DNA of 64,000 nucleotides from an uncultured delta proteobacterium (GTDB lineage: Bacteria; Myxococcota_A; Polyangia; Fen-1088): NCBI GenBank assembly GCA_963796685.1, contig CAWCMR010000025.1:1984001-2048000 (forward strand). The letters are read 5' to 3'. A program made the translations under genes and the position numbers. Positions within the stretch are counted from its first letter, which is position 1; every line of letters starts with the position of its first letter. The notes under the pieces were generated by a model. It saw nothing but the letters and a program-made list of their open reading frames with translations. It had not been told where the DNA came from and made no database searches. This document shows positions 16,993-30,780 of the stretch, piece by piece.

Positions 16993-18276
16993 TCACTCGA
17001 CTGGCTTTACCATGCGTCCCATGAAGATGATCGCGCCGCTCTTCACGTCGCGGATCAGGTACAAGAACGGATGGTTCGCATGGAAGATGACCGGTGGCGG
17101 TGGCGGCGGCCCCAAGGCTTGAGACTGGTTCACGAGATCCATCTCGAAAGCAGTTACCGCCGCAGCCGCCGTCCCCTTCTCGTTGGTTTCGAGCCAAGCC
17201 TTCTGGATTGCATCCCCGATGAACAGCCTAGTCTCGGTCACGCCCGAAAAGTCCGCGTGATTGGGATCGAAAGCCTGACGGATCCCCATCGTTTTCAGCA
17301 TGCCTACCAACGGCAACTCTGTCTCCACAGTGAAGCGGGGCAACTCCAGATCCACCTTCTTGTATTCCAGAGCTCCGATCCACCCGGCGTGCGAAGTGCC
17401 CAGCTGGTCCTCGATCCTCTCCAGGCCGTCAACGTCGCTCGGCAGAACCACAATCATCGACAGACCACCCTTGTAGGGCAGCTCGACCAGCTTTGCCCCA
17501 CCCACTTGCGCATACCGGAACATCGAGATCTGTCTCATCATCTTGACCGAGGTCTCTTCCTCCACGGTGGTGAACTTGCCGTCATAGGTCGCGCGTTCGT
17601 CGAACGGCTGCTGCCACCCACCCATCATGTAGACGGCATTGGCCAGGACCATGCGAGCCGCCGGGTTAAGCTTGCCGAGGATTTGCGGAATGCGGCCATG
17701 GGTCTCGTCGGAGGACCATTGGTTAATGGCGGACAGCGCGGCTTCGCGGTTAGTTGCGAAGTCCACCTTAGCCAGCGGCGCGTGAAAACCGTCGCGAAGC
17801 CGTGAAACATACTCCGGCCGCAGCTTGAGGTCTTTCTGCACCCACACGCGATCGGCCACGTTCAGCACCAGACCGTCATTACCGTTGCGCGATGTTAGTG
17901 CGTTGAGAATGGCGGCAAACGATCTATAGGTCTCGTCGAGGTTCGCGGGATCGATGTGCAGCGTGTGCAGCATCTCGTTCTGGGTTTCACCTTCCGCGCC
18001 CGCAGCGACCATGGTCAGCGCGATGGCTGCCCCGGCGGGCGAGCACACAAAGTTGTCCTGGTCTCTTCGAGCCTGGCGGTAGAAGTCGAATCCGAAGGCA
18101 TTGCAGGCCTTCACCGCCCCGTCTACTGTCGAGGCTTTGAAGCTGGAGGCGCAGCCTCCGGCTAACAAGGCCAACGAAGTCGCGGCAATGGCGGCGGAAA
18201 CGCGCATACTCATGACTCCAACACTAGCGAGTCCCATGGAGAACACAAGCGGTGCTGCTTGCTCAAACTGACTCAC
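16993..18276 (-). CDS. Serpin (serine protease inhibitor), lipoprotein
   Basis: NFVCSP, INQWSSDETHGRI, LANAVY, ELPY, LPRF, hinge NEKGTAAAAVT, FHANHPFLYLIRD; lipobox LAGGC; true start may be downstream. Confidence 0.95.
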   Translation of the reverse strand: MSQFEQAAPLVFSMGLASVGVMSMRVSAAIAATSLALLAGGCASSFKASTVDGAVKACNAFGFDFYRQARRDQDNFVCSPAGAAIALTMVAAGAEGETQNEMLHTLHIDPANLDETYRSFAAILNALTSRNGNDGLVLNVADRVWVQKDLKLRPEYVSRLRDGFHAPLAKVDFATNREAALSAINQWSSDETHGRIPQILGKLNPAARMVLANAVYMMGGWQQPFDERATYDGKFTTVEEETSVKMMRQISMFRYAQVGGAKLVELPYKGGLSMIVVLPSDVDGLERIEDQLGTSHAGWIGALEYKKVDLELPRFTVETELPLVGMLKTMGIRQAFDPNHADFSGVTETRLFIGDAIQKAWLETNEKGTAAAAVTAFEMDLVNQSQALGPPPPPPVIFHANHPFLYLIRDVKSGAIIFMGRMVKPVE

Positions 18277-18402: not shown

Positions 18403-20184
18403 GGCACTGTGTCAGAAGGGTGGTAATTCAGATGCATAATGGATCTAAGTCCCGGTGGTTAGTCGCGTTCATTGGTAGCGTCGTCGCCCTGTACTTTGGT
18501 TGCATCTCTGATCCTTTGCCCAAACGCTCCATCTCGACGCCAGATGGTGCCACAGAGGCCGCGCCGCTTATGCCCGAACTCAAGGACCAACCGGGCACAA
18601 GGGTGCTCAAGTGCACGGACGCCTACGGCTCCTCATCGCGCTATGCAGTCGATGATATGACCCGCAAGTTGGTGCGGTTCCCGAGCCTTGCAGCGTCCAT
18701 CGGCCTTACCTCTGTCAGTAACTGTGACGAGGCGATATCCTATGCCGGCGGCTACGATGAGTATTCGGGGCGCAACCCTGGCTTTGAGGAGCGCCCTGAT
18801 CCTAAATGGTCGGGCAATCCACCAACGGTGGACGATCGCGCGATCTTACCGAGGATCAAAGTGAAGGGCGGCGGGAAGACCGACACCTGGGCATTCCCTA
18901 CCAAGGATCATCCCGGCACCAGTCCGGGCCCTGTTGTTAAGATCGAGTCCGTATCTTGGTGGCCAAATGGGCAAGAGCAGATATTCCACAAGACTGCGGC
19001 AGATGGCATTGAATATAACGCCAACCAGTTCTGCGAGATATCCAGCAGCTGTACGGCCTTCTTTATCAACAGAAGTTGGCTATTGACGGCGGCCCACTGT
19101 ATGCAGAACGTGAACAAGTTCCCGGTGACTTACAATCCAGTCATGGTAGACGGACTCCTCACGTGCCAGTATCCTAGCGAGCCTAATCCTGCTTCCACTG
19201 ACCCCAAATACCCCCAAACTGGTGACCACAACGATTACCTTCCGGGCAAGGACATGCATGCGTCACATACGGGAGTTGCCCGCTACGTAATCTCTTGGCC
19301 AGCGAACGGTGATTACCCAAACGACGCTAATCAAGGTGTCTACTCGGTGCGATCAAATGCAGAGGAAATCTACTATGGAGTAGGCCTGTATCAGTTCCCG
19401 CATGAACAGTATGACCCGACGCAGGGTCAGCCCGACCTCAAGCAACCGGAAAACGTGGGCTCGCCAATCAGGCGCGGTCCCGATGTCGCGCTTCTCTCCA
19501 TGGCCAACTGGACCTCAGCGGCCGAATACATGGCACCTGACCTCGACAACGAAGCAGCAATGTACATAAAGGGAAAGCCGACATCGGCGACCGGGAACCC
19601 TGGCGCCGGCCTAACCTTCTGGGTCGCTGGTTATGGGTATAATCCGGCGCAGAACGATGGCGCGCTGTATGACGGAGTTCTGACGGGCAATGTGACATTC
19701 ACGGCTGATTGGCAGGACCAGGACACAAACAACAGGTTCGGCGGCTTCGGTAGCGTTTCGATGAACGTGACCTCTTTGGCCGAAGTCATCGTTTGCTCGG
19801 GAGACTCAGGCTCCCCGCTTTACACGGTGTTCACACCTGTCGATGGCGGACCCAGAAAGTTTATCGCATACGCCGTCCATTCCGGGGCATATCAAGCTCC
19901 ACCGGATGACGGTCGGGCGTGTTCGAAGCCGCCGGGTGACATTCTCTACTGGTCGCGAATAGAGGCTGATGACAGGTTGAGACAGTGGATGAATGTCAAG
20001 ATGGCTAATGGCCCCATAGCAACGACGGAAGATGAACAGGGTAAGTACAACCAGTGCCAACCCATGACCGACGCGGTCAACGGCTTGTACTACAAGTGCT
20101 GGGGAGATCCGTGTGACGGCCTAGATAAAGATGGCTCCTCGCTGTCTAAAATGGACGCGAGGTTGGTTGTTCCGCTAATCTTCC

Positions 20185-21462
20185 GTGGTGCAAAATCCAA
20201 GTTCTGGTCTTGACGTCAATGCGCTTTTTACAGTGGCTCTCGGCATGGTCAATCCATGGGAGGTCGTAGAGCTGAACCTTGACGCCGAGAAGAAGCGCCT
20301 CGACATCAAAGTCGACTTCAAGCCGGGGAGCACCTTCCCTTGCCCTACGTGTGGCGATGCTTGCAAGGTACACGATGCCTCGCCGCAGACATGGCGACAC
20401 CTGAACTTCTTCCAGTACCTCACCTATGTCGAGGCAAGACAACCTCGAACCAAGTGTGACAAGCACGGCGTCTTGACGGTCGATGTGCCATGGGCTCGTG
20501 GCGGGTCGAACTTCACCCTTCTCTTCGAGGCGATGGTGGTGGAACTGGCACGCAACGGCCTCACGGTGGCGGCGGTCGGTCGCATCGTCGGCGAGCATGA
20601 CACGCTCCTGTGGCGCATCCTGGAACACTACGTGGACGAGGCCCGTGAGCGAGCCGACTACAGCCAGGTCGCCGAGGTTGGCGTCGACGAGACTTCGCGG
20701 CAGAAGAACCACGTCTATGTCACGGTCTTTGCCGACATGGTTGCGGCGAAAGTCTTGTTCGTCACGGAGGGGAAAGATCACGGCACGGTGGCTTGTTTCA
20801 AGGACGATCTGCTCGCTCACGGTGGAGACGTGAAGAAGGTGACGGACTTCAGTCTCGACATGTCGCAGGCATTCATCAAGGGCATCTTGGAGACGTTTCC
20901 GGCGGCGCACCTAACCTTCGACAGGTTCCATGTCATCCAACTCATGAACGACGCAATCGATGAGGTGCGAAGGCAGGAGCAGAAGTCCTCTCCGGAGTTG
21001 AAGGGCACGCGCCACGACTGGCTGAGGAACGAGGCCAACATCAAATCCGAGAACAGGGAGCACTTCGCGGTCTTGCGCTCCTCCAAATTGGCCACTGCGC
21101 GGGCCTACCACATCAAGCTCATGCTACAGGAGTTGTATAGCCTGAGTGCGGATGAAGCGGAGGCGTGGTTTCAGCGCTGGTATTTCTGGGCCACCCATAG
21201 CCGATTGGAACCCGTCATCAGGGCCGCCAAGACCCTCAAGGCGCACCAGGCAGGCGTGATGAGATGGTTCATGTCAGGCCTGACGAATGGTCTCTTGGAA
21301 GGACTCAACAGCCTCATCCAGGCGGCCAAGGCGCGGGCGCGTGGCTTTCGCTCCGCGCGCAAAATGAAGACTGTGATTTATGGCTCCTCGCTGTCTAAAA
21401 TGGACGCGAGGTTGGTTGTTCCGCTAATCTTCCGTGGTGCAAAATCCAAGTTCTGGTCTTGA
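20185..21462 (+). CDS. ISL3 transposase of the outer copy, C-terminus replaced by the nested insertion
   Basis: Identical to 21434-22696 up to MKTVIY, then reads into the inner IRL. Confidence 0.85.
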   Translation: MVQNPSSGLDVNALFTVALGMVNPWEVVELNLDAEKKRLDIKVDFKPGSTFPCPTCGDACKVHDASPQTWRHLNFFQYLTYVEARQPRTKCDKHGVLTVDVPWARGGSNFTLLFEAMVVELARNGLTVAAVGRIVGEHDTLLWRILEHYVDEARERADYSQVAEVGVDETSRQKNHVYVTVFADMVAAKVLFVTEGKDHGTVACFKDDLLAHGGDVKKVTDFSLDMSQAFIKGILETFPAAHLTFDRFHVIQLMNDAIDEVRRQEQKSSPELKGTRHDWLRNEANIKSENREHFAVLRSSKLATARAYHIKLMLQELYSLSADEAEAWFQRWYFWATHSRLEPVIRAAKTLKAHQAGVMRWFMSGLTNGLLEGLNSLIQAAKARARGFRSARKMKTVIYGSSLSKMDARLVVPLIFRGAKSKFWS

Positions 21463-22705
21463 CGTCAATGCGCTTTTTACAGTGGCTCTCGGCATGGTCA
21501 ATCCATGGGAGGTCGTAGAGCTGAACCTTGACGCCGAGAAGAAGCGCCTCGACATCAAAGTCGACTTCAAGCCGGGGAGCACCTTCCCTTGCCCTACGTG
21601 TGGCGATGCTTGCAAGGTACACGATGCCTCGCCGCAGACATGGCGACACCTGAACTTCTTCCAGTACCTCACCTATGTCGAGGCAAGACAACCTCGAACC
21701 AAGTGTGACAAGCACGGCGTCTTGACGGTCGATGTGCCATGGGCTCGTGGCGGGTCGAACTTCACCCTTCTCTTCGAGGCGATGGTGGTGGAACTGGCAC
21801 GCAACGGCCTCACGGTGGCGGCGGTCGGTCGCATCGTCGGCGAGCATGACACGCTCCTGTGGCGCATCCTGGAACACTACGTGGACGAGGCCCGTGAGCG
21901 AGCCGACTACAGCCAGGTCGCCGAGGTTGGCGTCGACGAGACTTCGCGGCAGAAGAACCACGTCTATGTCACGGTCTTTGCCGACATGGTTGCGGCGAAA
22001 GTCTTGTTCGTCACGGAGGGGAAAGATCACGGCACGGTGGCTTGTTTCAAGGACGATCTGCTCGCTCACGGTGGAGACGTGAAGAAGGTGACGGACTTCA
22101 GTCTCGACATGTCGCAGGCATTCATCAAGGGCATCTTGGAGACGTTTCCGGCGGCGCACCTAACCTTCGACAGGTTCCATGTCATCCAACTCATGAACGA
22201 CGCAATCGATGAGGTGCGAAGGCAGGAGCAGAAGTCCTCTCCGGAGTTGAAGGGCACGCGCCACGACTGGCTGAGGAACGAGGCCAACATCAAATCCGAG
22301 AACAGGGAGCACTTCGCGGTCTTGCGCTCCTCCAAATTGGCCACTGCGCGGGCCTACCACATCAAGCTCATGCTACAGGAGTTGTATAGCCTGAGTGCGG
22401 ATGAAGCGGAGGCGTGGTTTCAGCGCTGGTATTTCTGGGCCACCCATAGCCGATTGGAACCCGTCATCAGGGCCGCCAAGACCCTCAAGGCGCACCAGGC
22501 AGGCGTGATGAGATGGTTCATGTCAGGCCTGACGAATGGTCTCTTGGAAGGACTCAACAGCCTCATCCAGGCGGCCAAGGCGCGGGCGCGTGGCTTTCGC
22601 TCCGCGCGCAAAATGAAGACTGTGATTTATCTGCTGCTGTCAAAACTGGACTTCAGACTTCCCTGTGCATTTCCCAATTCAATCCATTCCAAATAGCGAG
22701 GAGCC
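21382..22705 (+). mobile_element. Inner intact ISL3 copy (1324 bp)
   Basis: 23-bp IRs (19/23 match); TSD TGATTTAT at 21374-21381 and 22706-22713. Confidence 0.93.
21434..22696 (+). CDS. ISL3 transposase (intact)
   Basis: CPTC...CDKH, VGVDET, SLDMS, FDRFHV, TNGLLEGLNSLIQAAKARARGFR. Confidence 0.95.
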   Translation: MVQNPSSGLDVNALFTVALGMVNPWEVVELNLDAEKKRLDIKVDFKPGSTFPCPTCGDACKVHDASPQTWRHLNFFQYLTYVEARQPRTKCDKHGVLTVDVPWARGGSNFTLLFEAMVVELARNGLTVAAVGRIVGEHDTLLWRILEHYVDEARERADYSQVAEVGVDETSRQKNHVYVTVFADMVAAKVLFVTEGKDHGTVACFKDDLLAHGGDVKKVTDFSLDMSQAFIKGILETFPAAHLTFDRFHVIQLMNDAIDEVRRQEQKSSPELKGTRHDWLRNEANIKSENREHFAVLRSSKLATARAYHIKLMLQELYSLSADEAEAWFQRWYFWATHSRLEPVIRAAKTLKAHQAGVMRWFMSGLTNGLLEGLNSLIQAAKARARGFRSARKMKTVIYLLLSKLDFRLPCAFPNSIHSK

Positions 22706-23065
22706 TGATTTATCTGCTGCTGTCAAAACTGGACTTCAGACTTCCCTGTGCATTTCCCAATTCAATCCATTCCAAATAGCGAGGAGCCATAAAGATAACG
22801 GAAGCCAACACTGGTGCGACGACTACCAATCATGTGTTGGGTCTGGCAAGCAGCTTGATGATCAGCACCGTCCGTGCCTAGGCTGCCCCAATGCCCCGGC
22901 TGACAAGCCTTGCTCGTGTATCATGGGGTACTGCCAGTGGGACTCAGCAAAATTGGCCAACGCCGGTTTCGGAGGTGCGGGTGGAGCAAGTGGCGCGGGG
23001 GGGTCTAGCGGTGAGGGTGGCTCCACAGATGAGGGTGGCTCCACAGGTGAGGGAGGAAGTGCACC

Positions 23066-26000
23066 ATGAAAGGGTATACCGTGATGTTGAGGCGATCCGG
23101 CTCAGCCTTTGCGGTGCACGGCCTCCCGGCCTATCGTGCGCTCTTGGCCGCAACGATTCTGGCTGCAGCCGTCGGCTGCAGCTCGAAGGATGACGCCACT
23201 GGGAATGACCGCACAGGCTCAGCCGTGGTTGCGGCGAGGTCGAAAGCAATCATTACCGTGACCTCCACGCAAACCGCGACCGGAACCGTGACATCAACAG
23301 CCTACGGGACCAATTCCTGGACATCACTCGGGACGGTGACGACCACGGCCCTCGGAACGGTGACCTCGACGGCACTGGGGACCGTGACGACTACGGCGCT
23401 CGGGAGCCAGACCTGGACTTCGTACGGGACCGTTACATCTACCGCGCTCGGAACCCAGACTTGGACGTCGTACGGGACGGTGACATCGACGGCACTTGGG
23501 ACGGTGACATCAACGGCACTTGGGACGGTGACATCAACGGCGCTTGGGACGGTGACTACGACAGCATTGGGGACGGTGACGTCGACAGGGTTGGGAACGG
23601 GAACTGTGACGGCGACCGTAACAAACACTGCGACGATGATATCGACAAGTACGCAATACGTCACGGTGACCGGCACCGTTTCTGGGACGTGGACTGTGAC
23701 GGCGTGGTCCACTGGTTCTTGGACGGGCCCCGCCACCAAGACCCAGACGACGACGAACGTTTCCCCCAATCAGAAGCCTGTTACATCTAGCATCACTGGG
23801 ACCAAGACAGCCACCGATACCTCTGGCTACAATAGCGGAGTAACGAAGACCGTCACGGGCACGGTCACACAATTTGCCACCTGGGCGGGGACAACGACTG
23901 TCACGATGAGCGACACCGCGACCGGGACAAACCACTACAGTGGTTCTGGCACGCGAACGGTCAGCGGGACCGCGTCCAATACCGGAACGGCTACAGGCAC
24001 TTGGACCTACAGACTTACAAGTACGGCAACTCAGACGGCCCACAACACGGTGACGAACTACAATACACTGACGAACTACAATACCGTGACGGTCTATAAC
24101 ACGGTAACGAGCTACAACACGGTGACGGTATCGAATACGCTAACGAACCACAATACCGTGACGGTATCAAATACGCTGACAAACCACAATACCGTGACGA
24201 TTTCCAATACGGTGACAAACTACAACACCGTGACGAATTCGAATACGGTGACAAACTACAACACCGTGACGAATTCGAATACCGGGATCGTCACCACGAC
24301 GGGTACGGGCACGGCGACGGCAACTTCAACCAACACAGTTACGATCATCGTTCCGTTCCCAGTTGGGCTTGGGGTTGACACCAGGGCTGTCGGTGCTAAC
24401 GGGTCGCTTCAGGTGGGGGATCGTTCCAAGTCTCAGATGGGCGACGGCACGCCTGGCCCAATGTCCAACGCAGGGAGCGGTGTGGCAGATATCGGGGTGG
24501 ACTGCCAAATTGGAAGCCTGACCAGCCTAGGTTCGGTCTCGCTGCGGGAACGGGCACATATTCTTGGAAATCTGACGACATCGGGCACGGTGAATCCGCA
24601 AAACGATACCGTGGTTACCGGAACGACAACCCAGAATGCAGTGTTGACGCCGCTCTCGATCATGGCCTGGAGCACAGTGGTTCCGGCGACGAACATGGGC
24701 AACGTCCTACTCTATCCCGGTAGCAATGCCACGGTGAATCCTGGCGCGTACACAGATCTTACCGTCTACACCGGGTCAAACATGACCCTGACTTCTGGCA
24801 CGTACTACGCAACATCGTTCGATATCGAGCCGCAGGCGACGCTGACCCTTAATATGACCTCGGGCCCGATCGTGGTGTACGCGACCGGGGCAATCGTATA
24901 CAGGGGGACCATGGTGAACCAGGGGGGGACTGACGGAGCCTTCATGCTGGTCGAGTTGGGCGACACCGATATGGCCGTCGAGAACACATTCATCGGCACC
25001 ATCGTGGTGCCCAACGCGACGTTGACGTTGGGGGCAACCGTTCCCCTCACACTGCAGGGCCAGTTCTATGGGCAGAATATCGTCGTTCGCCCGGATACGA
25101 CCCTGGCGGCGAAATCGTTCCCGTGGACTGCGCTTAACCCGCCGTCCGGGGGTGAGTGCTGGTCCGCTGACGACACGGACAACGACGGGGTGTGGGATTG
25201 CCATGACAAGTGCCCGTACGATAAGAATAAGACAGAGCCTGGCGTCTGCGGTTGTAACATTCCTGATGTCAATAGCGACAGCGATGTAGCTCCCGACTGC
25301 ATCGATCAATGCCCCACTGATCCTAACAAGACCACGCCGGGACAGTGTGGGTGCCTGGACAAAGGATTTACAGCTGCGGGAACGCCATGCACCGACCGAC
25401 CCTGCCCACAACTTGGGCCACAGGAAGACACGGTGTGCAATGGCATGGGGGCCTGTGGAGATGTGAGCTCGTGCATACCAAATGAGGGGGACTGCAAGCT
25501 CTTAACCCTGGGCCAGATGGCCTATTATTTCTGCGACGCCACCTCGATGCCAGGCGAGCCACCACCTGCGGGGACTCCTCAGGCGAACGCAGAAAACGCC
25601 TGCCGGCAGAAAGGCATGGCGTTGATAAGTGTTGAAGACGCCACGAAGAACGAGAACATCCGGCGGATGCTTTCGGCGCCTATCTGGCTTGGGGCGAATT
25701 CCCTCTCAACCGCGGGTGTGTGGAGATGGGCGACGGCGGCCACAGACGACGGCAGCCAGTTCTGGAGTGGCGGTGCGAACGGGTCTAGGGTTGGAAACAT
25801 GTATGTGAACTGGGCAGCCAATGCCCCAGCGGATGGACAGTGTGCAGCGATGAACCCGGCAGATGGAAAGTGGTTTGCTGCAGACTGCGGATCGAACCTG
25901 GGCTATGTCTGCGAGTATTGGATGCCGTGGGCGAGCGTGCCCCCTCTTGGTGGTCCCCCAGTCCCGCTAGCTCCGCCGCCGATGGATAAGTGTACCCCCG

Positions 26001-28747
26001 AGAGCGCATCGATAGCCCAGCTGCCGCAGCCCGTCGGGAATCCTCCATCGGATGCCGCAATTCTTGCTGCTCAAGACGAGCTGCTGTGGCAGATAGGGCA
26101 CCCCGATGCAGGACAAGGCGCAGCGAGGAATCCTCCTGGGCCAGGCTCAACCTGTCCTCAGCCTGACCCATCGACCCTCGCGCTAGGACCAGTAGGACCA
26201 AGCGGACTGGCCGGGGTAGGCTGTCAGATTACAAACCAGAAGCTAGTTGACGGAGGGGCAGCTGGGGAGTGTACCAGCGATGAGCAGTGTCAGAGGAATT
26301 TTGGCGCCTCATATGTCTGTCGCGAGATCATGGATGATCCGCAGTGTCCAAAGACCTACGACCCGAACACCGACGCTTCACCGTGTAAGGAACGCGCCTG
26401 GTGCGTTGTTCTTGACTGTTCAGGACTGACGCTTCCAGGTGATAATAATCCATGCGACGAGATCCAAATCTGCAATCCGGGCAGCGAGTATGACGCCGGC
26501 GTGGATCCTGACACGAGATGGGATCCCCCGACTTTCGATCCTGGTCCGCTATTCCCGGGTGGCACGGTTCCCGACGCGAGCCCATCATCGGCCTTTAACA
26601 AAGATGATCCGAACCCGGGCGAAGCCGATGCAGGTGTGAACCACCCGTGGTGCAAGTTCACCACGCAGAACCCAGCGATGCCTGCGGCGGATCAACCAGG
26701 CAACAACAGCCCTAGTGCGAAGACTGATCAGAGCAAAGCAATCAGCCTTAGCTTCGACCCCAAGCTCACCTTCAATATCAACATAAGCCCAATTGCGATG
26801 GGCGAGACTAACCTTTCGATCAGGGCAGGGGCGAGTATGGGCGCGACGGTAAAGATCAATTCGTTCCTGGGAATGCCCTCGATGGAGAAGACCATACTCT
26901 ACGCTGGCGCAAGTCTTGCCCTGGAACGGTGCACTTTCCGAACAGACGATACACGACTTGAGCTCTTCGGCATCAATGTCCCGATCGACGACTATGTTCC
27001 TATCCTCAACACATCGATTAACCCGGAGGATCCGAGCACCGGTGACCCGAACCATTCAAACCAGGCGTTGTACAATGTCAGCAAGGCTTGCACGGATGCG
27101 CTGAATACGTACCAGGTCTGGTCCGGTCGCGTGAAGAAGTCTTTCCGCGATGCCCAACAGCTTCTCAAACAGTATCACGCCTTGGCCGGTATGCTGAACA
27201 AGGACAGCCTGTGTGCTGCAATCGAGTCGGTTGGCCCCGAGGTTCATGACTTTCCCGGTGGCGCAAAGTGCTACGAGAATGAATCGGTCGAGGACCTCAT
27301 CAATCGGTTCGTCTACTATTATCAAGCTCCGGGTATCGGACAGGTCACCAAGATGAAGGCCATGGCAGGCGGGCTGAAAGGTGCAAGCGCCGCGCTAATC
27401 CAGGGGATTATCGGAGCGTTGGCGGCGAAATGGAAGGAGGGGGGGCCGGGTGACTCAATGATTGAAATCAATTTCCTGAAGATCGACCATCCATATGCCC
27501 AGACCATCGCAAACGTGCCGTTCGCTATCGGTCCAATACCATGTGTGCTGCAGGTCGACATTGCGGCCAACTATGGCATCGTCGGCAATTTCGGGCTCGA
27601 CCTCAATTTTCCGACGGATATCCTTTTCGGCGACCCACCAGTATATGGACAACAAATAGCGCATGCTCGGGCGCAGGTTGTACCTTATGCGTCGGCGAAG
27701 TTGTCGGCATTTGTCGGAGCTGGATTTGACTACGGACCGTTCTCTGCAACATTAGGTATCGAAGGCTCGGTCAGTCTTGCGAAGATCCGCCTACCGATGT
27801 ACGGGGGAGCGGGCCTTGACGTGGATGTGCTGCAAGATTACCGCCCAATTCCTACTGACGTCGGGCCCCCCGTCTCCATAGCAACAAATGCTTTCAGTTT
27901 CGGGATTCCGAAAAACTTTACCTTCCACGCCACATACGACTATGGGATCAGGGTTGACGTGGACGACATTCTAGCTGGGGCCATCAATGCCCGGCTTCGC
28001 ATCAAGTTCGGCTGGTTTTTCAGCAGGACCTGGCGCAAGCAGATCGCGAAGTTCAATGGCATGAGTTTCCACAAAGACATTCTCGAGGGTCAAGGTACGA
28101 TTGCGAACGTTAACGTCAATTTGAGCCGCAACACACCTCCGCTGCCACCAACGGGGGCTTCTGCCCAGCTGCTTGGGGCTCCCGATGGTACGAAGGTGGA
28201 CGATGCAACGGCTACCACCGCGGTAGGTAACGCCACGATGGGGATTTCGGAGAGCGAAGTGCCATTGACTGTTCTTGCCTATCTGCCCGGCCCGGGCGAC
28301 CCGAACTACCACTATACTCCGGGGACTCTACCCGACGGTGGGGTCGGCGTTGATGGCGGACCGACCGGGCCAGGCCAAGTGACCTTCGAGAAGCTGGCAG
28401 GGTTGTTCTACGATAATCAGTGCTGCGCAAAGCTGGGAGATGCCTGCGAGGTAGACTATACCCCGTACCCGCCTTGCTGCCCAGGCACAGATTGCACTCC
28501 GGATACGAATGCTCCGTCGGTCAAGCACTGTACACAAGGGTGTCGAGCTCAAGGGGTGGAGTGCACAGGCGGTGGCCAGTGCTGCCCAGTCAATGACAGT
28601 GTGATTTGCAACAGTTCTGGTCTCTGCGGGACCTGTTCCAAAGGGCCCCCCGAGGACAGCCTAGGATGCACGACCGATGCGGACTGCTGCTACAACTATG
28701 CCTGCTATCATGGCGACCACTGTGTTTACCAAGGCGTCATCTACTGA
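23066..28747 (+). CDS. Giant 1893-aa multidomain lipoprotein: Thr repeats, beta-helix, TSP3-like repeats, C-type lectin-like domain, beta-sheet domain, Cys-rich tail
   Basis: Lipobox AAVGC; GTVTSTAL and NTVTNY repeats; DTDNDGVWDCHDKCP; IWLGANS..WRW..WAANAP..C..W...C...LGYVCE. Confidence 0.85.
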   Translation: MKGYTVMLRRSGSAFAVHGLPAYRALLAATILAAAVGCSSKDDATGNDRTGSAVVAARSKAIITVTSTQTATGTVTSTAYGTNSWTSLGTVTTTALGTVTSTALGTVTTTALGSQTWTSYGTVTSTALGTQTWTSYGTVTSTALGTVTSTALGTVTSTALGTVTTTALGTVTSTGLGTGTVTATVTNTATMISTSTQYVTVTGTVSGTWTVTAWSTGSWTGPATKTQTTTNVSPNQKPVTSSITGTKTATDTSGYNSGVTKTVTGTVTQFATWAGTTTVTMSDTATGTNHYSGSGTRTVSGTASNTGTATGTWTYRLTSTATQTAHNTVTNYNTLTNYNTVTVYNTVTSYNTVTVSNTLTNHNTVTVSNTLTNHNTVTISNTVTNYNTVTNSNTVTNYNTVTNSNTGIVTTTGTGTATATSTNTVTIIVPFPVGLGVDTRAVGANGSLQVGDRSKSQMGDGTPGPMSNAGSGVADIGVDCQIGSLTSLGSVSLRERAHILGNLTTSGTVNPQNDTVVTGTTTQNAVLTPLSIMAWSTVVPATNMGNVLLYPGSNATVNPGAYTDLTVYTGSNMTLTSGTYYATSFDIEPQATLTLNMTSGPIVVYATGAIVYRGTMVNQGGTDGAFMLVELGDTDMAVENTFIGTIVVPNATLTLGATVPLTLQGQFYGQNIVVRPDTTLAAKSFPWTALNPPSGGECWSADDTDNDGVWDCHDKCPYDKNKTEPGVCGCNIPDVNSDSDVAPDCIDQCPTDPNKTTPGQCGCLDKGFTAAGTPCTDRPCPQLGPQEDTVCNGMGACGDVSSCIPNEGDCKLLTLGQMAYYFCDATSMPGEPPPAGTPQANAENACRQKGMALISVEDATKNENIRRMLSAPIWLGANSLSTAGVWRWATAATDDGSQFWSGGANGSRVGNMYVNWAANAPADGQCAAMNPADGKWFAADCGSNLGYVCEYWMPWASVPPLGGPPVPLAPPPMDKCTPESASIAQLPQPVGNPPSDAAILAAQDELLWQIGHPDAGQGAARNPPGPGSTCPQPDPSTLALGPVGPSGLAGVGCQITNQKLVDGGAAGECTSDEQCQRNFGASYVCREIMDDPQCPKTYDPNTDASPCKERAWCVVLDCSGLTLPGDNNPCDEIQICNPGSEYDAGVDPDTRWDPPTFDPGPLFPGGTVPDASPSSAFNKDDPNPGEADAGVNHPWCKFTTQNPAMPAADQPGNNSPSAKTDQSKAISLSFDPKLTFNINISPIAMGETNLSIRAGASMGATVKINSFLGMPSMEKTILYAGASLALERCTFRTDDTRLELFGINVPIDDYVPILNTSINPEDPSTGDPNHSNQALYNVSKACTDALNTYQVWSGRVKKSFRDAQQLLKQYHALAGMLNKDSLCAAIESVGPEVHDFPGGAKCYENESVEDLINRFVYYYQAPGIGQVTKMKAMAGGLKGASAALIQGIIGALAAKWKEGGPGDSMIEINFLKIDHPYAQTIANVPFAIGPIPCVLQVDIAANYGIVGNFGLDLNFPTDILFGDPPVYGQQIAHARAQVVPYASAKLSAFVGAGFDYGPFSATLGIEGSVSLAKIRLPMYGGAGLDVDVLQDYRPIPTDVGPPVSIATNAFSFGIPKNFTFHATYDYGIRVDVDDILAGAINARLRIKFGWFFSRTWRKQIAKFNGMSFHKDILEGQGTIANVNVNLSRNTPPLPPTGASAQLLGAPDGTKVDDATATTAVGNATMGISESEVPLTVLAYLPGPGDPNYHYTPGTLPDGGVGVDGGPTGPGQVTFEKLAGLFYDNQCCAKLGDACEVDYTPYPPCCPGTDCTPDTNAPSVKHCTQGCRAQGVECTGGGQCCPVNDSVICNSSGLCGTCSKGPPEDSLGCTTDADCCYNYACYHGDHCVYQGVIY
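23282..23593 (+). repeat. 13 x 24-bp coding repeat (GTVTSTAL-type octapeptide)
   Basis: Counted from the translation; synonymous codons differ between units. Confidence 0.9.
24044..24277 (+). repeat. 13 x 18-bp coding repeat (NTVTNY-type hexapeptide)
   Basis: Counted from the translation. Confidence 0.9.
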
Positions 28748-28866
28748 GGACTCAAGTTTACTCGGTCGATGCGAAGTGCCGCGCGGCTTTCGGCTTTGCT
28801 TGTTATCACAGCGCTATACGCATCCGCCCCGAAGCTATCCCATCGATTTCAGGAGAGACACGAGAG

Positions 28867-30780
28867 GTGCAGTTGCGAACGATTCATGCAGTAGCGATTG
28901 GCTGTCTGGCCTCTTGCCAGCCGGCCGGACGGACTAGCGTTAAAGCAGCGCGGGAATCGAGCGCTGTTGGTGCGGCGCACTCGACGCAGACGAGGGCACT
29001 TGCGCCGGCCCCGTCTCCACCGGGGGCGATTTGGGCCGCGGGAAAGGTATACGATTTCCGCGTACATTCGACGGCGATGGTTGACTTTGGCAGCGCGGCA
29101 AGCGGGATCAGCTACGAGCTTGAAGCAAGTCCCAGGATCATGGTGGTCGACCATCGCGGGGATCGTACGACCCTCTATCTACGGCTATTGGGAGTTACGG
29201 TCAGGAATCCCCAGGCCAACGGCGGAGCGAACTTCGACCAGTTGGCGCAGGAGCTTCGTGAAGGCGCATGTCTGGCTGTGTTGTCCAGTGGACGCTTGGT
29301 AGAGCTCGGCTTTCGAAAAGGCGTCTCCAACGCGGCATTGGCCACCTTCAGGCAGCTAGCTTCAAGTCTCCAACTGGCGAAGCCGGGGACTGGTAGCTCC
29401 TGGCAGGCGGAGGAGTACGACACGAGTGGGCAGTATGTGGCGCAATATACTTTTGACGATGGGTCAAAGGTCTATCGCAAGGAGAAACTGCACTACCTGG
29501 CTCTGCTAGGGAGGCCTGTTGTGCCTGGTGTGGGGCCGCTCCAACTGGTTCCAGAGGTCAGAAAGTCAACAGGCGAAATCCGCCTGACCCACGATGGTGC
29601 CCTTGAGCTGGTGGACCTTGAAGACGCAGTGGTCCTGCAGGGCGCGCAGGTGCCCATGCTTTCTGAGACGCATCTCGTGCTCAATCTGACGGCGGTTGGG
29701 ACATCGGGAGTGGCAACCGATCCGACTCGGCTGAGATCAGAGTTCACGATTATGCCGGCCTCGGAGCAAGGCGCCAACATGCCAAGCCTGGAATCTTTGG
29801 ACCGGGCGCGGACGCAAGGGGCTACCTTTCGCGCAATTCTATCCCGCATTGAAGCGGAGCGTGAGACTCGCCAGCGCGAGACATCCAAGAATGTTCCAAA
29901 GCGCAAGAGCCAATCCGCGCACGGACAGCAGCAGATAAGCGTTAGAGCCATTGGTGATGTCGGGCTATTCAATGCCTTGGTTGCGTCGCTTCGCGAGAGC
30001 CAAGAGGCAGTGGATACAGCGGTGCGAATGATCAAGGAGGAGTCTCCCCTTCTCGACGTGCTGATCGACGCTTTGGGCTCGGCCTCCAACCCGGGATGCG
30101 AGGCTGCCTTGACGGGATTGCTGTCGTCCGCAGATTCGGAAACCAAGCCTCGCATTCTGTATGCGCTGTCACAGGCGCCCAGACCTGGCGACAAGGGTGT
30201 GGCGGCGATGAAAGCGTTGCTGGCAGAAGATCCCTTCAGCCAGACCGGCCTTTACGGGCTTGGGAGCTATGCCCGGCGATTCGCTGAGCAGGGGAACAAA
30301 GAAATGGCGGCTGAATTGGGCGAGTTTTTGATTCAGAAGCTGGAGAAAGCGCACGGGGCGACGAACAAGATTACGGCGCTGCGAGCCATTGAGAACTCAG
30401 GATACGCGCCGGCGATTAGCAGCTTGCAGCGATATTTCGACGATCCGGATCCGTTCGTTCGCACCGCCGCTATTCGAGCTCTTCGGCCGATGAAAGATCC
30501 CTTGGTGGCTGATGTCCTTGCTTCTCGAATCAGGTCAGATCATTCTTCCGAGGAGAGGCTGCTTCTCTTGGAGATTGTTGAGAGCAGGGAGCCGTCCAAC
30601 ACGCTGATTGGAGCGGTTGTGGATGCGTCGAGCACTCTCGACGTGAAGGTGCGTCGGCAAGCTGTCGGGCTATTGGCCAAATGGGTTGCCGGGCAACCAC
30701 AGTTGCGACAAGTGCTCAGGAAGATAGGCGAATCCGATTCCGATCCGCAGGTCCGCGCCGCGGCGCGCGTGGATCTCTAG
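28867..30780 (+). CDS. Lipoprotein with beta-rich N-domain and HEAT/superhelical C-domain; resembles the vitellogenin/MTP N-terminal lipid-transport module
   Basis: GTG start with upstream AGGAG, lipobox LASC; EEYDTSGQYVAQY..YRKEK; LIDALGSA, ALRAIENSG, VRTAAIRALR helices. Confidence 0.65.
   Translation: MQLRTIHAVAIGCLASCQPAGRTSVKAARESSAVGAAHSTQTRALAPAPSPPGAIWAAGKVYDFRVHSTAMVDFGSAASGISYELEASPRIMVVDHRGDRTTLYLRLLGVTVRNPQANGGANFDQLAQELREGACLAVLSSGRLVELGFRKGVSNAALATFRQLASSLQLAKPGTGSSWQAEEYDTSGQYVAQYTFDDGSKVYRKEKLHYLALLGRPVVPGVGPLQLVPEVRKSTGEIRLTHDGALELVDLEDAVVLQGAQVPMLSETHLVLNLTAVGTSGVATDPTRLRSEFTIMPASEQGANMPSLESLDRARTQGATFRAILSRIEAERETRQRETSKNVPKRKSQSAHGQQQISVRAIGDVGLFNALVASLRESQEAVDTAVRMIKEESPLLDVLIDALGSASNPGCEAALTGLLSSADSETKPRILYALSQAPRPGDKGVAAMKALLAEDPFSQTGLYGLGSYARRFAEQGNKEMAAELGEFLIQKLEKAHGATNKITALRAIENSGYAPAISSLQRYFDDPDPFVRTAAIRALRPMKDPLVADVLASRIRSDHSSEERLLLLEIVESREPSNTLIGAVVDASSTLDVKVRRQAVGLLAKWVAGQPQLRQVLRKIGESDSDPQVRAAARVDL

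Follow-up and report, generated by a model that had tools for sequence, protein, structure and literature searches.

The 64,000-nucleotide (nt) stretch of DNA analyzed here (the window; positions 1,984,001 to 2,048,000 of contig CAWCMR010000025.1 from an uncultured delta proteobacterium of the Polyangia) contains a gene for a surface lipoprotein, P0001, in which a threonine (Thr)-rich region of approximately amino acids (aa) 61 to 428 carries two tandem peptide arrays around a conserved domain (Table 1). By reading the translation, we found a lipobox at aa 31 to 38 (ILAAAVGC), as in bacterial lipoproteins, with Cys38 as the lipobox Cys, and this lipobox pattern is common to the other module-bearing lipoproteins described below. 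In the order from the lipobox, the module comprises an N-terminal Thr-rich segment (N-arm), a conserved Thr-rich domain (the core or head) and a C-terminal Thr-rich segment (C-arm). Mannose-receptor chains in the PDB match the lectin domain farther downstream (E = 2e-4). Apart from this domain (Lectin_C), the whole of P0001 matched nothing in Pfam at E values of up to 0.1, and an NCBIfam scan gave no match; no model of either collection matches the module, and its domain family is unannotated.

Table 1. Features of the P0001 gene and its Thr-rich module (positions are those of the window; ORF, open reading frame).
Feature	Position	Strand	Basis
Host gene P0001, 1893-aa surface lipoprotein	23066..28747	+	Sole long ORF at the site; translation
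Signal peptide ending in a lipobox, aa 1-38 (...ILAAAVGC)	23066..23179	+	Read from the translation
N-arm entry flank, aa 61-72, AIITVTSTQTAT	23246..23281	+	Viterbi segmentation (Thr-rich segment from aa 64); comparison with the reversed exit
13 octapeptides, aa 73-176 (proposed outgoing arm)	23282..23593	+	Cutting in 24-nt steps; Tandem Repeats Finder; period-8 region aa 77-186
N-arm inner flank, aa 177-196	23594..23653	+	Thr-x register runs on to the core
Conserved Thr-rich central domain ("head"), ~120 residues, aa 197-320	23654..24025	+	Alignment with 9 homologues (A1)
C-arm inner flank, aa 321-326	24026..24043	+	Segmentation
13 hexapeptides, aa 327-404 (proposed returning arm)	24044..24277	+	Cutting in 18-nt steps; Tandem Repeats Finder; period-6 region aa 321-410
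C-arm exit flank, aa 405-428 (...TSTNTVTII)	24278..24349	+	Thr-rich segment ends at aa 426
C-type lectin domain, aa 840-950	25583..25915	+	Pfam PF00059, 42.8 bits (cut-off 22.6)

Cut in steps of 24 nt, the first array divides into exactly 13 octapeptides (five GTVTSTAL, three GTVTTTAL and five variants), and cut in steps of 18 nt, the second array divides into exactly 13 hexapeptides of the NTVTNY type, as the original prediction had read them. The arrays are 150 residues apart (aa 177 to 326). Tandem Repeats Finder reported 10.7 copies with a period of 24 at 23325 to 23581 and 12.9 copies with a period of 18 at 24042 to 24273, together with higher-order periods of 48, 36, and 72. Both units contain T-x-T; each begins with G or N and ends, on the Thr face, with L, Y, S, or H. 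Long ORFs that span the octapeptide array in other frames (23302 to 23769 on the minus strand and 23461 to 23790 on the plus strand) were rejected as genes, their VTVP... and DGD... repeats being by-products of the repeated codon pattern.

The arrays are alike in further respects. W-containing octamers are units 2, 6, and 8, as are L-containing hexamers; three identical positions among 13 would be expected by chance in 1 of 286 cases, in a test that was made post hoc. Units 6 and 8 stem from a two-unit duplication in each array (octamers 6-7/8-9 and hexamers 5-6/7-8) and fit a parallel and a mirrored register alike, because they are symmetric about unit 7. The predicted antiparallel register of the W and L units is thus compatible with units 6 and 8, while unit 2 fits the parallel index only. 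Synonymous codons vary between units, as had been claimed: the five GTVTSTAL units have five DNA versions and the three GTVTTTAL units have three. Over all unit pairs, synonymous versus nonsynonymous codon differences number 257 versus 176 in the octamers and 154 versus 129 in the hexamers. This heavy synonymous divergence shows that the arrays are old and have been kept at the protein level, while the DNA identity of hexamer units 10-11 with 12-13 indicates a recent duplication. The flanks mirror each other as described originally, with 10 of 13 positions identical between the entry (aa 62 to 74) and the reversed exit (aa 412 to 428); 6 of these 10 identities are the alternating Thr, and the non-Thr positions agree at 4 of 7 (I, I, V, and A). 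Because no DNA inverted repeat joining the arms was found, the match between the arms is not the effect of a DNA palindrome. No RNA sequencing run was listed as containing the sequence; one DNA run, with a small share of it, yielded an identical 293-nt contig and two short pieces, which give no information on variation in unit number.

A search of the genome itself revealed a paralogue that is 55% identical to P0001 over aa 64 to 425 and two more proteins that match the inter-array stretch only. An alignment of this stretch from ten proteins (A1) defines the central domain. The A1 profile matched 15 places in 6 of the 89 genomes of the family, all of them within one of its 19 genera, and 27 proteins at E ≤0.001 among 1.84 billion representatives. 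We read 18 of these 27 proteins; 15 carry the module, and three (P0011, P0018, and P0020) are unrelated repeat proteins. A word-based homologue search with the module returned only three proteins because Thr-rich words saturate the candidate list, and a search of the ESM Atlas with the core gave no usable match. Overall, many large lipoproteins of one genus begin with the module, which also occurs in metagenomic relatives; it comes directly after the lipobox and a short linker, and the C-terminal parts of these proteins differ considerably. P0003, P0016, and P0019 share the C-terminal architecture of P0001 and have arms of nonrepetitive Thr-x; the module is absent from L048, a sister-genome paralogue that aligns from the residues VPFP..., i.e., right after the exit flank. 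In the 12 other genomes of the genus, we found no close orthologue of P0001, the best match being 33% identical over the part after the module.

We also note that gene callers often cut or misread genes at such Thr-rich stretches. A separate case is L015 (G012:C29), a 928-aa ORF for a lipoprotein with ~560 residues of Thr-x that does not match the core profile. Its first half is Q-rich with ~44-aa units, its second half has P-containing units of ~28 aa, and the two halves are of similar length, so that L015 is possibly a hairpin without a head.

To compare the arms across the family, we delimited them in 30 proteins with a two-state Viterbi composition rule, with no manual boundaries, and then subtracted the profile-placed core. 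Of these proteins, 26 were kept, while P0012 and P0017 (N-terminus cut), P0010 (ends within the C-arm), and P0007 (out of frame after the core) were dropped. In P0007 (1230 aa), ~150 residues after the core are rich in H, D, and R and look like an out-of-frame Thr repeat, as would result from a frameshift or an assembly error in a repeat. Among the 26 proteins, N-arms of 15 to 228 aa and C-arms of 24 to 180 aa are correlated with a Pearson r of 0.97. When each cluster of 70% core identity was represented by a single protein (n = 15), r was 0.96, and the mean absolute difference between the arms is 15.7 residues compared to 66.8 in permuted pairs, a match that was reached in 0 of 20000 permutations. 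Within one cluster of close cores, the N- and C-arms have 79/68, 88/86, 121/149 (112 by an earlier anchor-based boundary), and 149/138 residues; closely related cores thus have different yet paired arm lengths, which supports that both arms changed together repeatedly.

Only four proteins have an octapeptide array before the core and a hexapeptide array after it (hereafter, 8/6 proteins), i.e., P0001 and a PilY1-like set composed of the paralogue in the same genome and its orthologues in two sister genomes. In the 22 members without 8/6 arrays, the N-arm exceeds the C-arm by 1 to 14 residues in 19 cases. In the four 8/6 proteins, the excess is 27, 29, 37, and 48 residues, with 133 and 106 residues in the two arms of P0001; this corresponds to ~2 residues per unit pair, and the arms therefore match by units rather than by residues. 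Counted by eye, the octa- and hexapeptide units of the PilY1-like proteins number 18/17-18 in genome G000, 13/12-13 in G007, and 16/16-17 in G001. A periodicity parse with overlapping rows merged gave 13.8/15.0 for P0001, 17.9/19.8 for G000, 14.5/14.7 for G007, and 17.8/18.8 for G001. The prediction that the arrays change length together is borne out: unit numbers differ between the 8/6 proteins and match within each, including the three further ones, and arm lengths covary throughout the family. P0001 and the PilY1-like arrays are 72 to 82% identical in DNA, while their cores have no DNA match, which argues that the 8/6 arm pair was moved or conserved as a pair. In the three PilY1-like 8/6 proteins, the octamers are bordered on the outer side by a short hexapeptide run and the hexamers by a short octapeptide run, in the manner of a nested mirror. 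On these sequence comparisons, a coupling of the two arms is well supported.

The Thr register is unbroken in nearly all arms of at least 60 residues: across stretches of up to 228 residues, the Thr phase shows no net shift, and each of the few flips is either undone a few residues later or located at the far end of an arm. In arms without 8/6 arrays, the Thr face is 83% T in the N-arms (989 positions) and 88% T in the C-arms (908 positions); in P0001, T makes up 71 to 76% of this face. The non-Thr face of the arms without 8/6 arrays consists of A, Q, G, V, S, N, and similar residues, and in most of these arms its periodicity does not exceed chance, with L044 and the C-arm of P0002 lying above the 95% level of shuffled sequences. 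The 8/6 arms are strongly periodic. The lack of periodicity on the other face of most arms without 8/6 arrays argues that recent dipeptide slippage is not the source of the register; these arms look mostly not to be recent tandem repeats, and their register looks selected. A test for a mirrored register, in which the reversed Thr positions of the N-arm were compared with those of the C-arm, did not discriminate: given the high regularity of the Thr register, many offsets scored alike, as did the parallel control.

The full paralogue with the octa/hexa module is a PilY1-like protein of 2029 aa. The C-terminal 830 aa of this paralogue, L045, matched the PilY1 propeller model PF05567 with 29.6 bits (cut-off 28.1), while a scan of the whole protein listed nothing. 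A search with the PilY1-like paralogue found 40 homologues; in the long ones, other domains are surrounded by Thr-x segments, with PF00754, PF13385, and PF16841 among the precomputed Pfam labels. In the PilY1-like proteins, conserved blocks lie on both sides of the module. Most of these proteins have a Cys one residue ahead of the start of the first Thr segment, and a Cys stands at each end of the insert in 20 of the 29 whose insert is complete. Insertion within another protein requires that the ends of the insert meet, which fits an out-and-back path of the chain. In several distant PilY1-like proteins with other heads, the two Thr segments are also of similar length (137/125, 242/218, 127/151, and 120/141 residues; in P0032, 161 versus 51 + 119). 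Thr-x segments in P0032, P0035, P0036, P0039, P0048, and P0049 flank and separate two or three carbohydrate-binding-type domains; in P0032, the first segment (161 aa) is thereby approximately as long as the middle and last segments together.

We considered PilY1-like proteins of ~1150 to 1300 aa as insert-free forms and dropped this reading; the five examined, P0043, P0052, P0054, P0060, and P0051 (~1170 to 1300 aa), are cut gene calls that begin internally, just after the Thr- and Cys-rich insert, with four starting at an internal MM(T/I)VKRALRR and one in the Cys-rich part. A DxSGS-like motif precedes the insert in L044 and L039 and might hint at a von Willebrand A domain as the insertion host; no Pfam VWA match was found around the insertion, and such a host was not confirmed. 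A PDB sequence search with the PilY1-like protein returned 0 matches at E ≤1, and a search for related loci with the PilY1-type core returned one weak metagenome locus and one genome locus, apparently that of G007.

Structure prediction had been proposed as a check on the original prediction. AlphaFold2 without an alignment predicted strands in the P0001 module and, instead of a ribbon, two separate solenoid-like stacks of low confidence (mean predicted local distance difference test score [pLDDT] of 50.3). The octapeptide array, with the best confidence (pLDDT 70 to 80), was modeled as 5-residue strands with 3-residue turns, the hexapeptide array (pLDDT 55 to 64) as a 9 + 3 strand-turn pattern, and the core had a pLDDT of <35. 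For a relative without 8/6 arrays, modeled with a 9-row alignment (pLDDT 36.7), the strands were long (40, 35, 38, and 40 residues) and their order was mirrored. In VIA-align, the octapeptide part superposed on β-rolls, i.e., 3ult_B (Z 13.7, root mean square deviation [rmsd] 8.2 Å, 108 residues) and 7usl_C (Z 9.4, rmsd 2.1 Å, 98 residues), and the hexapeptide part on solenoids of the SufBD and CsgA types; by the tool's own warning, repeat models often reach such Z values. Foldseek against the PDB returned nothing at E ≤0.001. A complex prediction of the N-arm (aa 61 to 196) with the C-arm (aa 317 to 430) scored 0.00, which is no answer either way.

Based on the matched counts, the covariation of the arms, and the insertion context, we lean, at somewhat better than even odds, toward a reading in which the arrays belong to a single module, one as its outgoing and the other as its returning arm, and in which these arms lie side by side, run in opposite directions, and contribute one rung per unit. 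From the lipid-anchored N-terminus, the chain would pass through the 13 octapeptides of the N-arm, the head, the 13 hexapeptides of the C-arm, and on to the remainder of the protein. With the arms antiparallel and adjacent, the head would come to lie at the far end and the chain would be back at its origin. Each unit would form one rung, made of a short strand and a tight turn at G or N and stacked at ~4.8 Å, so that 8-residue and 6-residue units would pair one for one. The stalk would then measure ~6 nm for 13 rungs, or 3 nm if a coil consists of two units, and would not be a flat two-stranded ribbon. Its length would be set by the number of units, and a gain or loss of a unit in one arm would need a match in the other. 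A likely job of the module would be to present a binding head a fixed distance away from the membrane anchor; in the PilY1-like paralogue, a protein of a pilus-tip adhesin family, the head would be displayed away from the host domain. The 8/6 arrays, with their opening G or N, V inside, and L or Y on the Thr face, are better explained by one rung per unit, because this is the only simple one-for-one match of 8 and 6 residues; arms without such arrays probably pair residue for residue.

Several observations weigh against this reading. The pLDDT values of the module and of the relative are low, and the AlphaFold2 stacks are separate, with coils of 16 and 24 residues that would have unequal heights and leave the equal counts unexplained. 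Unit 2, the sole W/L match that discriminates between registers, follows the parallel and not the antiparallel index. Three of the four 8/6 proteins are orthologous, their counts are uncertain by approximately one unit, and the outer runs of the three PilY1-like ones are unequal (~6 to 12 versus 3.6 to 4.4 units). In other distant PilY1-like proteins with other heads, the Thr segments are unequal as well (350/221 and 572/366). Finally, the relatives do not count as independent cases, the arms were delimited by composition, and L008, L044, and P0021, which are visibly overextended on the C-side, were retained as they came.

The original prediction had interpreted the arrays as a long twisted β-ribbon with bulges in an 8-against-6 register. 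If the arms formed such a continuous two-stranded antiparallel ribbon, with each octapeptide bulging by two residues against its hexapeptide, the structure would be ~26 to 34 nm long. The near-mirror flanks suit it, and, as both unit lengths are even, bulges of two residues would leave the phase of the Thr face intact. It also fits the members without 8/6 arrays, with their nearly equal residue numbers and mostly aperiodic non-Thr face, and the long mirrored strands modeled for one of them. In P0001, however, 133 residues face 106, and equal strand lengths would have to be replaced by 13 regular two-residue bulges; we know of no ribbon of this kind. Moreover, L/Y ladders spaced at 8 and 6 residues cannot stay in register when flat, two strands of >100 residues would have no hydrophobic face to hold them, and AlphaFold2 gave short strand-turn units rather than long strands. 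The periodic G/N and L/Y residues and the nonantiparallel W/L match also speak against this part of the original interpretation, and we consider the ribbon unlikely; the interpretation as a whole is partly supported, while the underlying observation is confirmed. The separate stacks built by AlphaFold2 would instead suit two β-solenoids that do not touch, have equal counts by descent or chance, and offer separate Thr-faced surfaces for ice, polysaccharide, or mineral. Such solenoids are also in line with T-x-T in both units and with the superpositions on β-rolls and CsgA-/SufBD-type solenoids, among which an ice-binding protein ranked first. This ranking is weakened by the frequency of such Z values among repeat models, and no ice-binding, ice-nucleation, or TxT antifreeze family model matched P0001 in Pfam (E up to 0.1) or NCBIfam. 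Because independent solenoids would leave the matched counts (~13, 16-17, and 18), the family-wide correlation, and the insertion with a Cys at both ends unexplained, we regard them as quite improbable.

With ~40% Thr, no hydrophobic face, an adjacent lipid anchor, and low AlphaFold2 confidence, the arms might also be disordered, possibly O-glycosylated, mucin-like spacers that flank a small domain; glycosylated Ser/Thr stalks are known from other surface proteins. For such spacers, composition would suffice; yet Thr recurs at every second residue with 83 to 88% occupancy and almost no net slip, and the two lengths match over a 15-fold range, which makes spacers of this kind quite improbable. 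Lastly, the equal counts and W/L positions could be coincidences in arrays grown by slippage under neutral repeat dynamics. Recent duplications did occur (hexamers 10-11 equal 12-13 in DNA, and octamers 9-11 are nearly identical), and the W/L test is post hoc. But all four 8/6 proteins match within ~1 to 2 units, no permutation reproduced the arm match of the family, and the heavy synonymous divergence between units points to old arrays conserved at the protein level; neutral dynamics are thus already disfavored, and we consider them very improbable. Returning to the paired out-and-back arms, a broader proposal, which we put forward tentatively and hold to be doubtful in its full form, is that relatives labeled "uncultured Myxococcales" carry a family of (Thr-x)n β-stalks that act as length-adjustable rulers, with out-and-back arms of selectable length presenting a head domain from lipoproteins and PilY1-like proteins alike, and that, in P0001, an 8-residue repeat is locked to a 6-residue repeat in a new heterometric fold with its own pairing rule.

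In the surroundings of the P0001 gene, two tandem copies of an ISL3-family transposase gene (Pfam DDE_Tnp_ISL3; 20185 to 21462 and 21434 to 22696), 1249 nt apart, lie in a region (20131 to 22793) that also contains a perfect 83-nt tandem duplication (22623 to 22788) and whose terminal inverted repeats end ~270 nt upstream of the lipoprotein gene. Farther upstream, a serpin gene (Pfam Serpin, E = 1.5e-101; 16993 to 18276, minus strand) is back to back with a gene for a trypsin-like protease (18420 to 20213, plus strand). Downstream, the lipoprotein ORF is overlapped at its end by a plus-strand ORF (28606 to 30780) that contains HEAT repeats and a Vitellogenin_N-like stretch.

The module, a proposed repeat-built surface stalk, shares short tandem T-x-T units with the Thr-ladder β-solenoid ice-binding proteins, of which that of Lolium perenne (3ULT) gave the best superposition of the octapeptide-array model, but with the rmsd given above; insect antifreezes are likewise of the TxT type. 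Unlike these solenoids, P0001 is a lectin-bearing lipoprotein in which two arrays that differ in unit length but not in count surround a conserved domain. The repeats of bacterial ice-nucleation proteins have 8-, 16-, and 48-residue periodicities, and the octapeptide period with a 16-residue higher order (24 and 48 nt in Tandem Repeats Finder) and the alternate Thr residues resemble them; here, however, there are only 13 units, and the hexapeptide partner array and the central domain have no known counterpart in those proteins. In design, the proposed stalk would be analogous to that of dynein, an antiparallel coiled-coil that bears a head, in having matched out-and-back arms, a head at the tip, and the ability to be inserted in a host domain; dynein-type stalks are α-helical with heptad registers, whereas the arms here are of a Thr-x β-type sequence without homology to them. 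A glycosylated Ser/Thr-rich stalk or linker has reportedly been described for an animal surface protein. Such stalks are similarly Thr-rich and membrane-proximal and differ from the module in that the latter has a strict two-residue register, matched arms, and periodic turn residues; a mucin-like linker would have a compositional bias without a fixed register or length constraint, which is not what we found. PilY1 pilus-tip adhesins have variable N-terminal parts, and the paralogue with the octa/hexa module is itself PilY1-like. The abstract of a 2026 survey of myxobacterial PilY1 proteins stresses this N-terminal diversity, and its main text has no mention of threonine, Thr-rich, low-complexity, disordered, insertion, or repeat (PMC13190605). 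We found no description of the module in the open-access literature searched.

The finding flags an unannotated domain family. If the arms pair, the module would be a β-type counterpart of coiled-coil stalks, i.e., a modular spacer that is tuned by repeat number and whose halves change together. A heterometric stalk, if true, would represent a fold and a pairing rule without a solved precedent, in which two arrays are forced to coevolve in copy number. The family would then offer a natural system for studying the copy-number coevolution of tandem arrays, the possible binding role of extended Thr faces, and how surface and pilus-tip adhesins set their reach.

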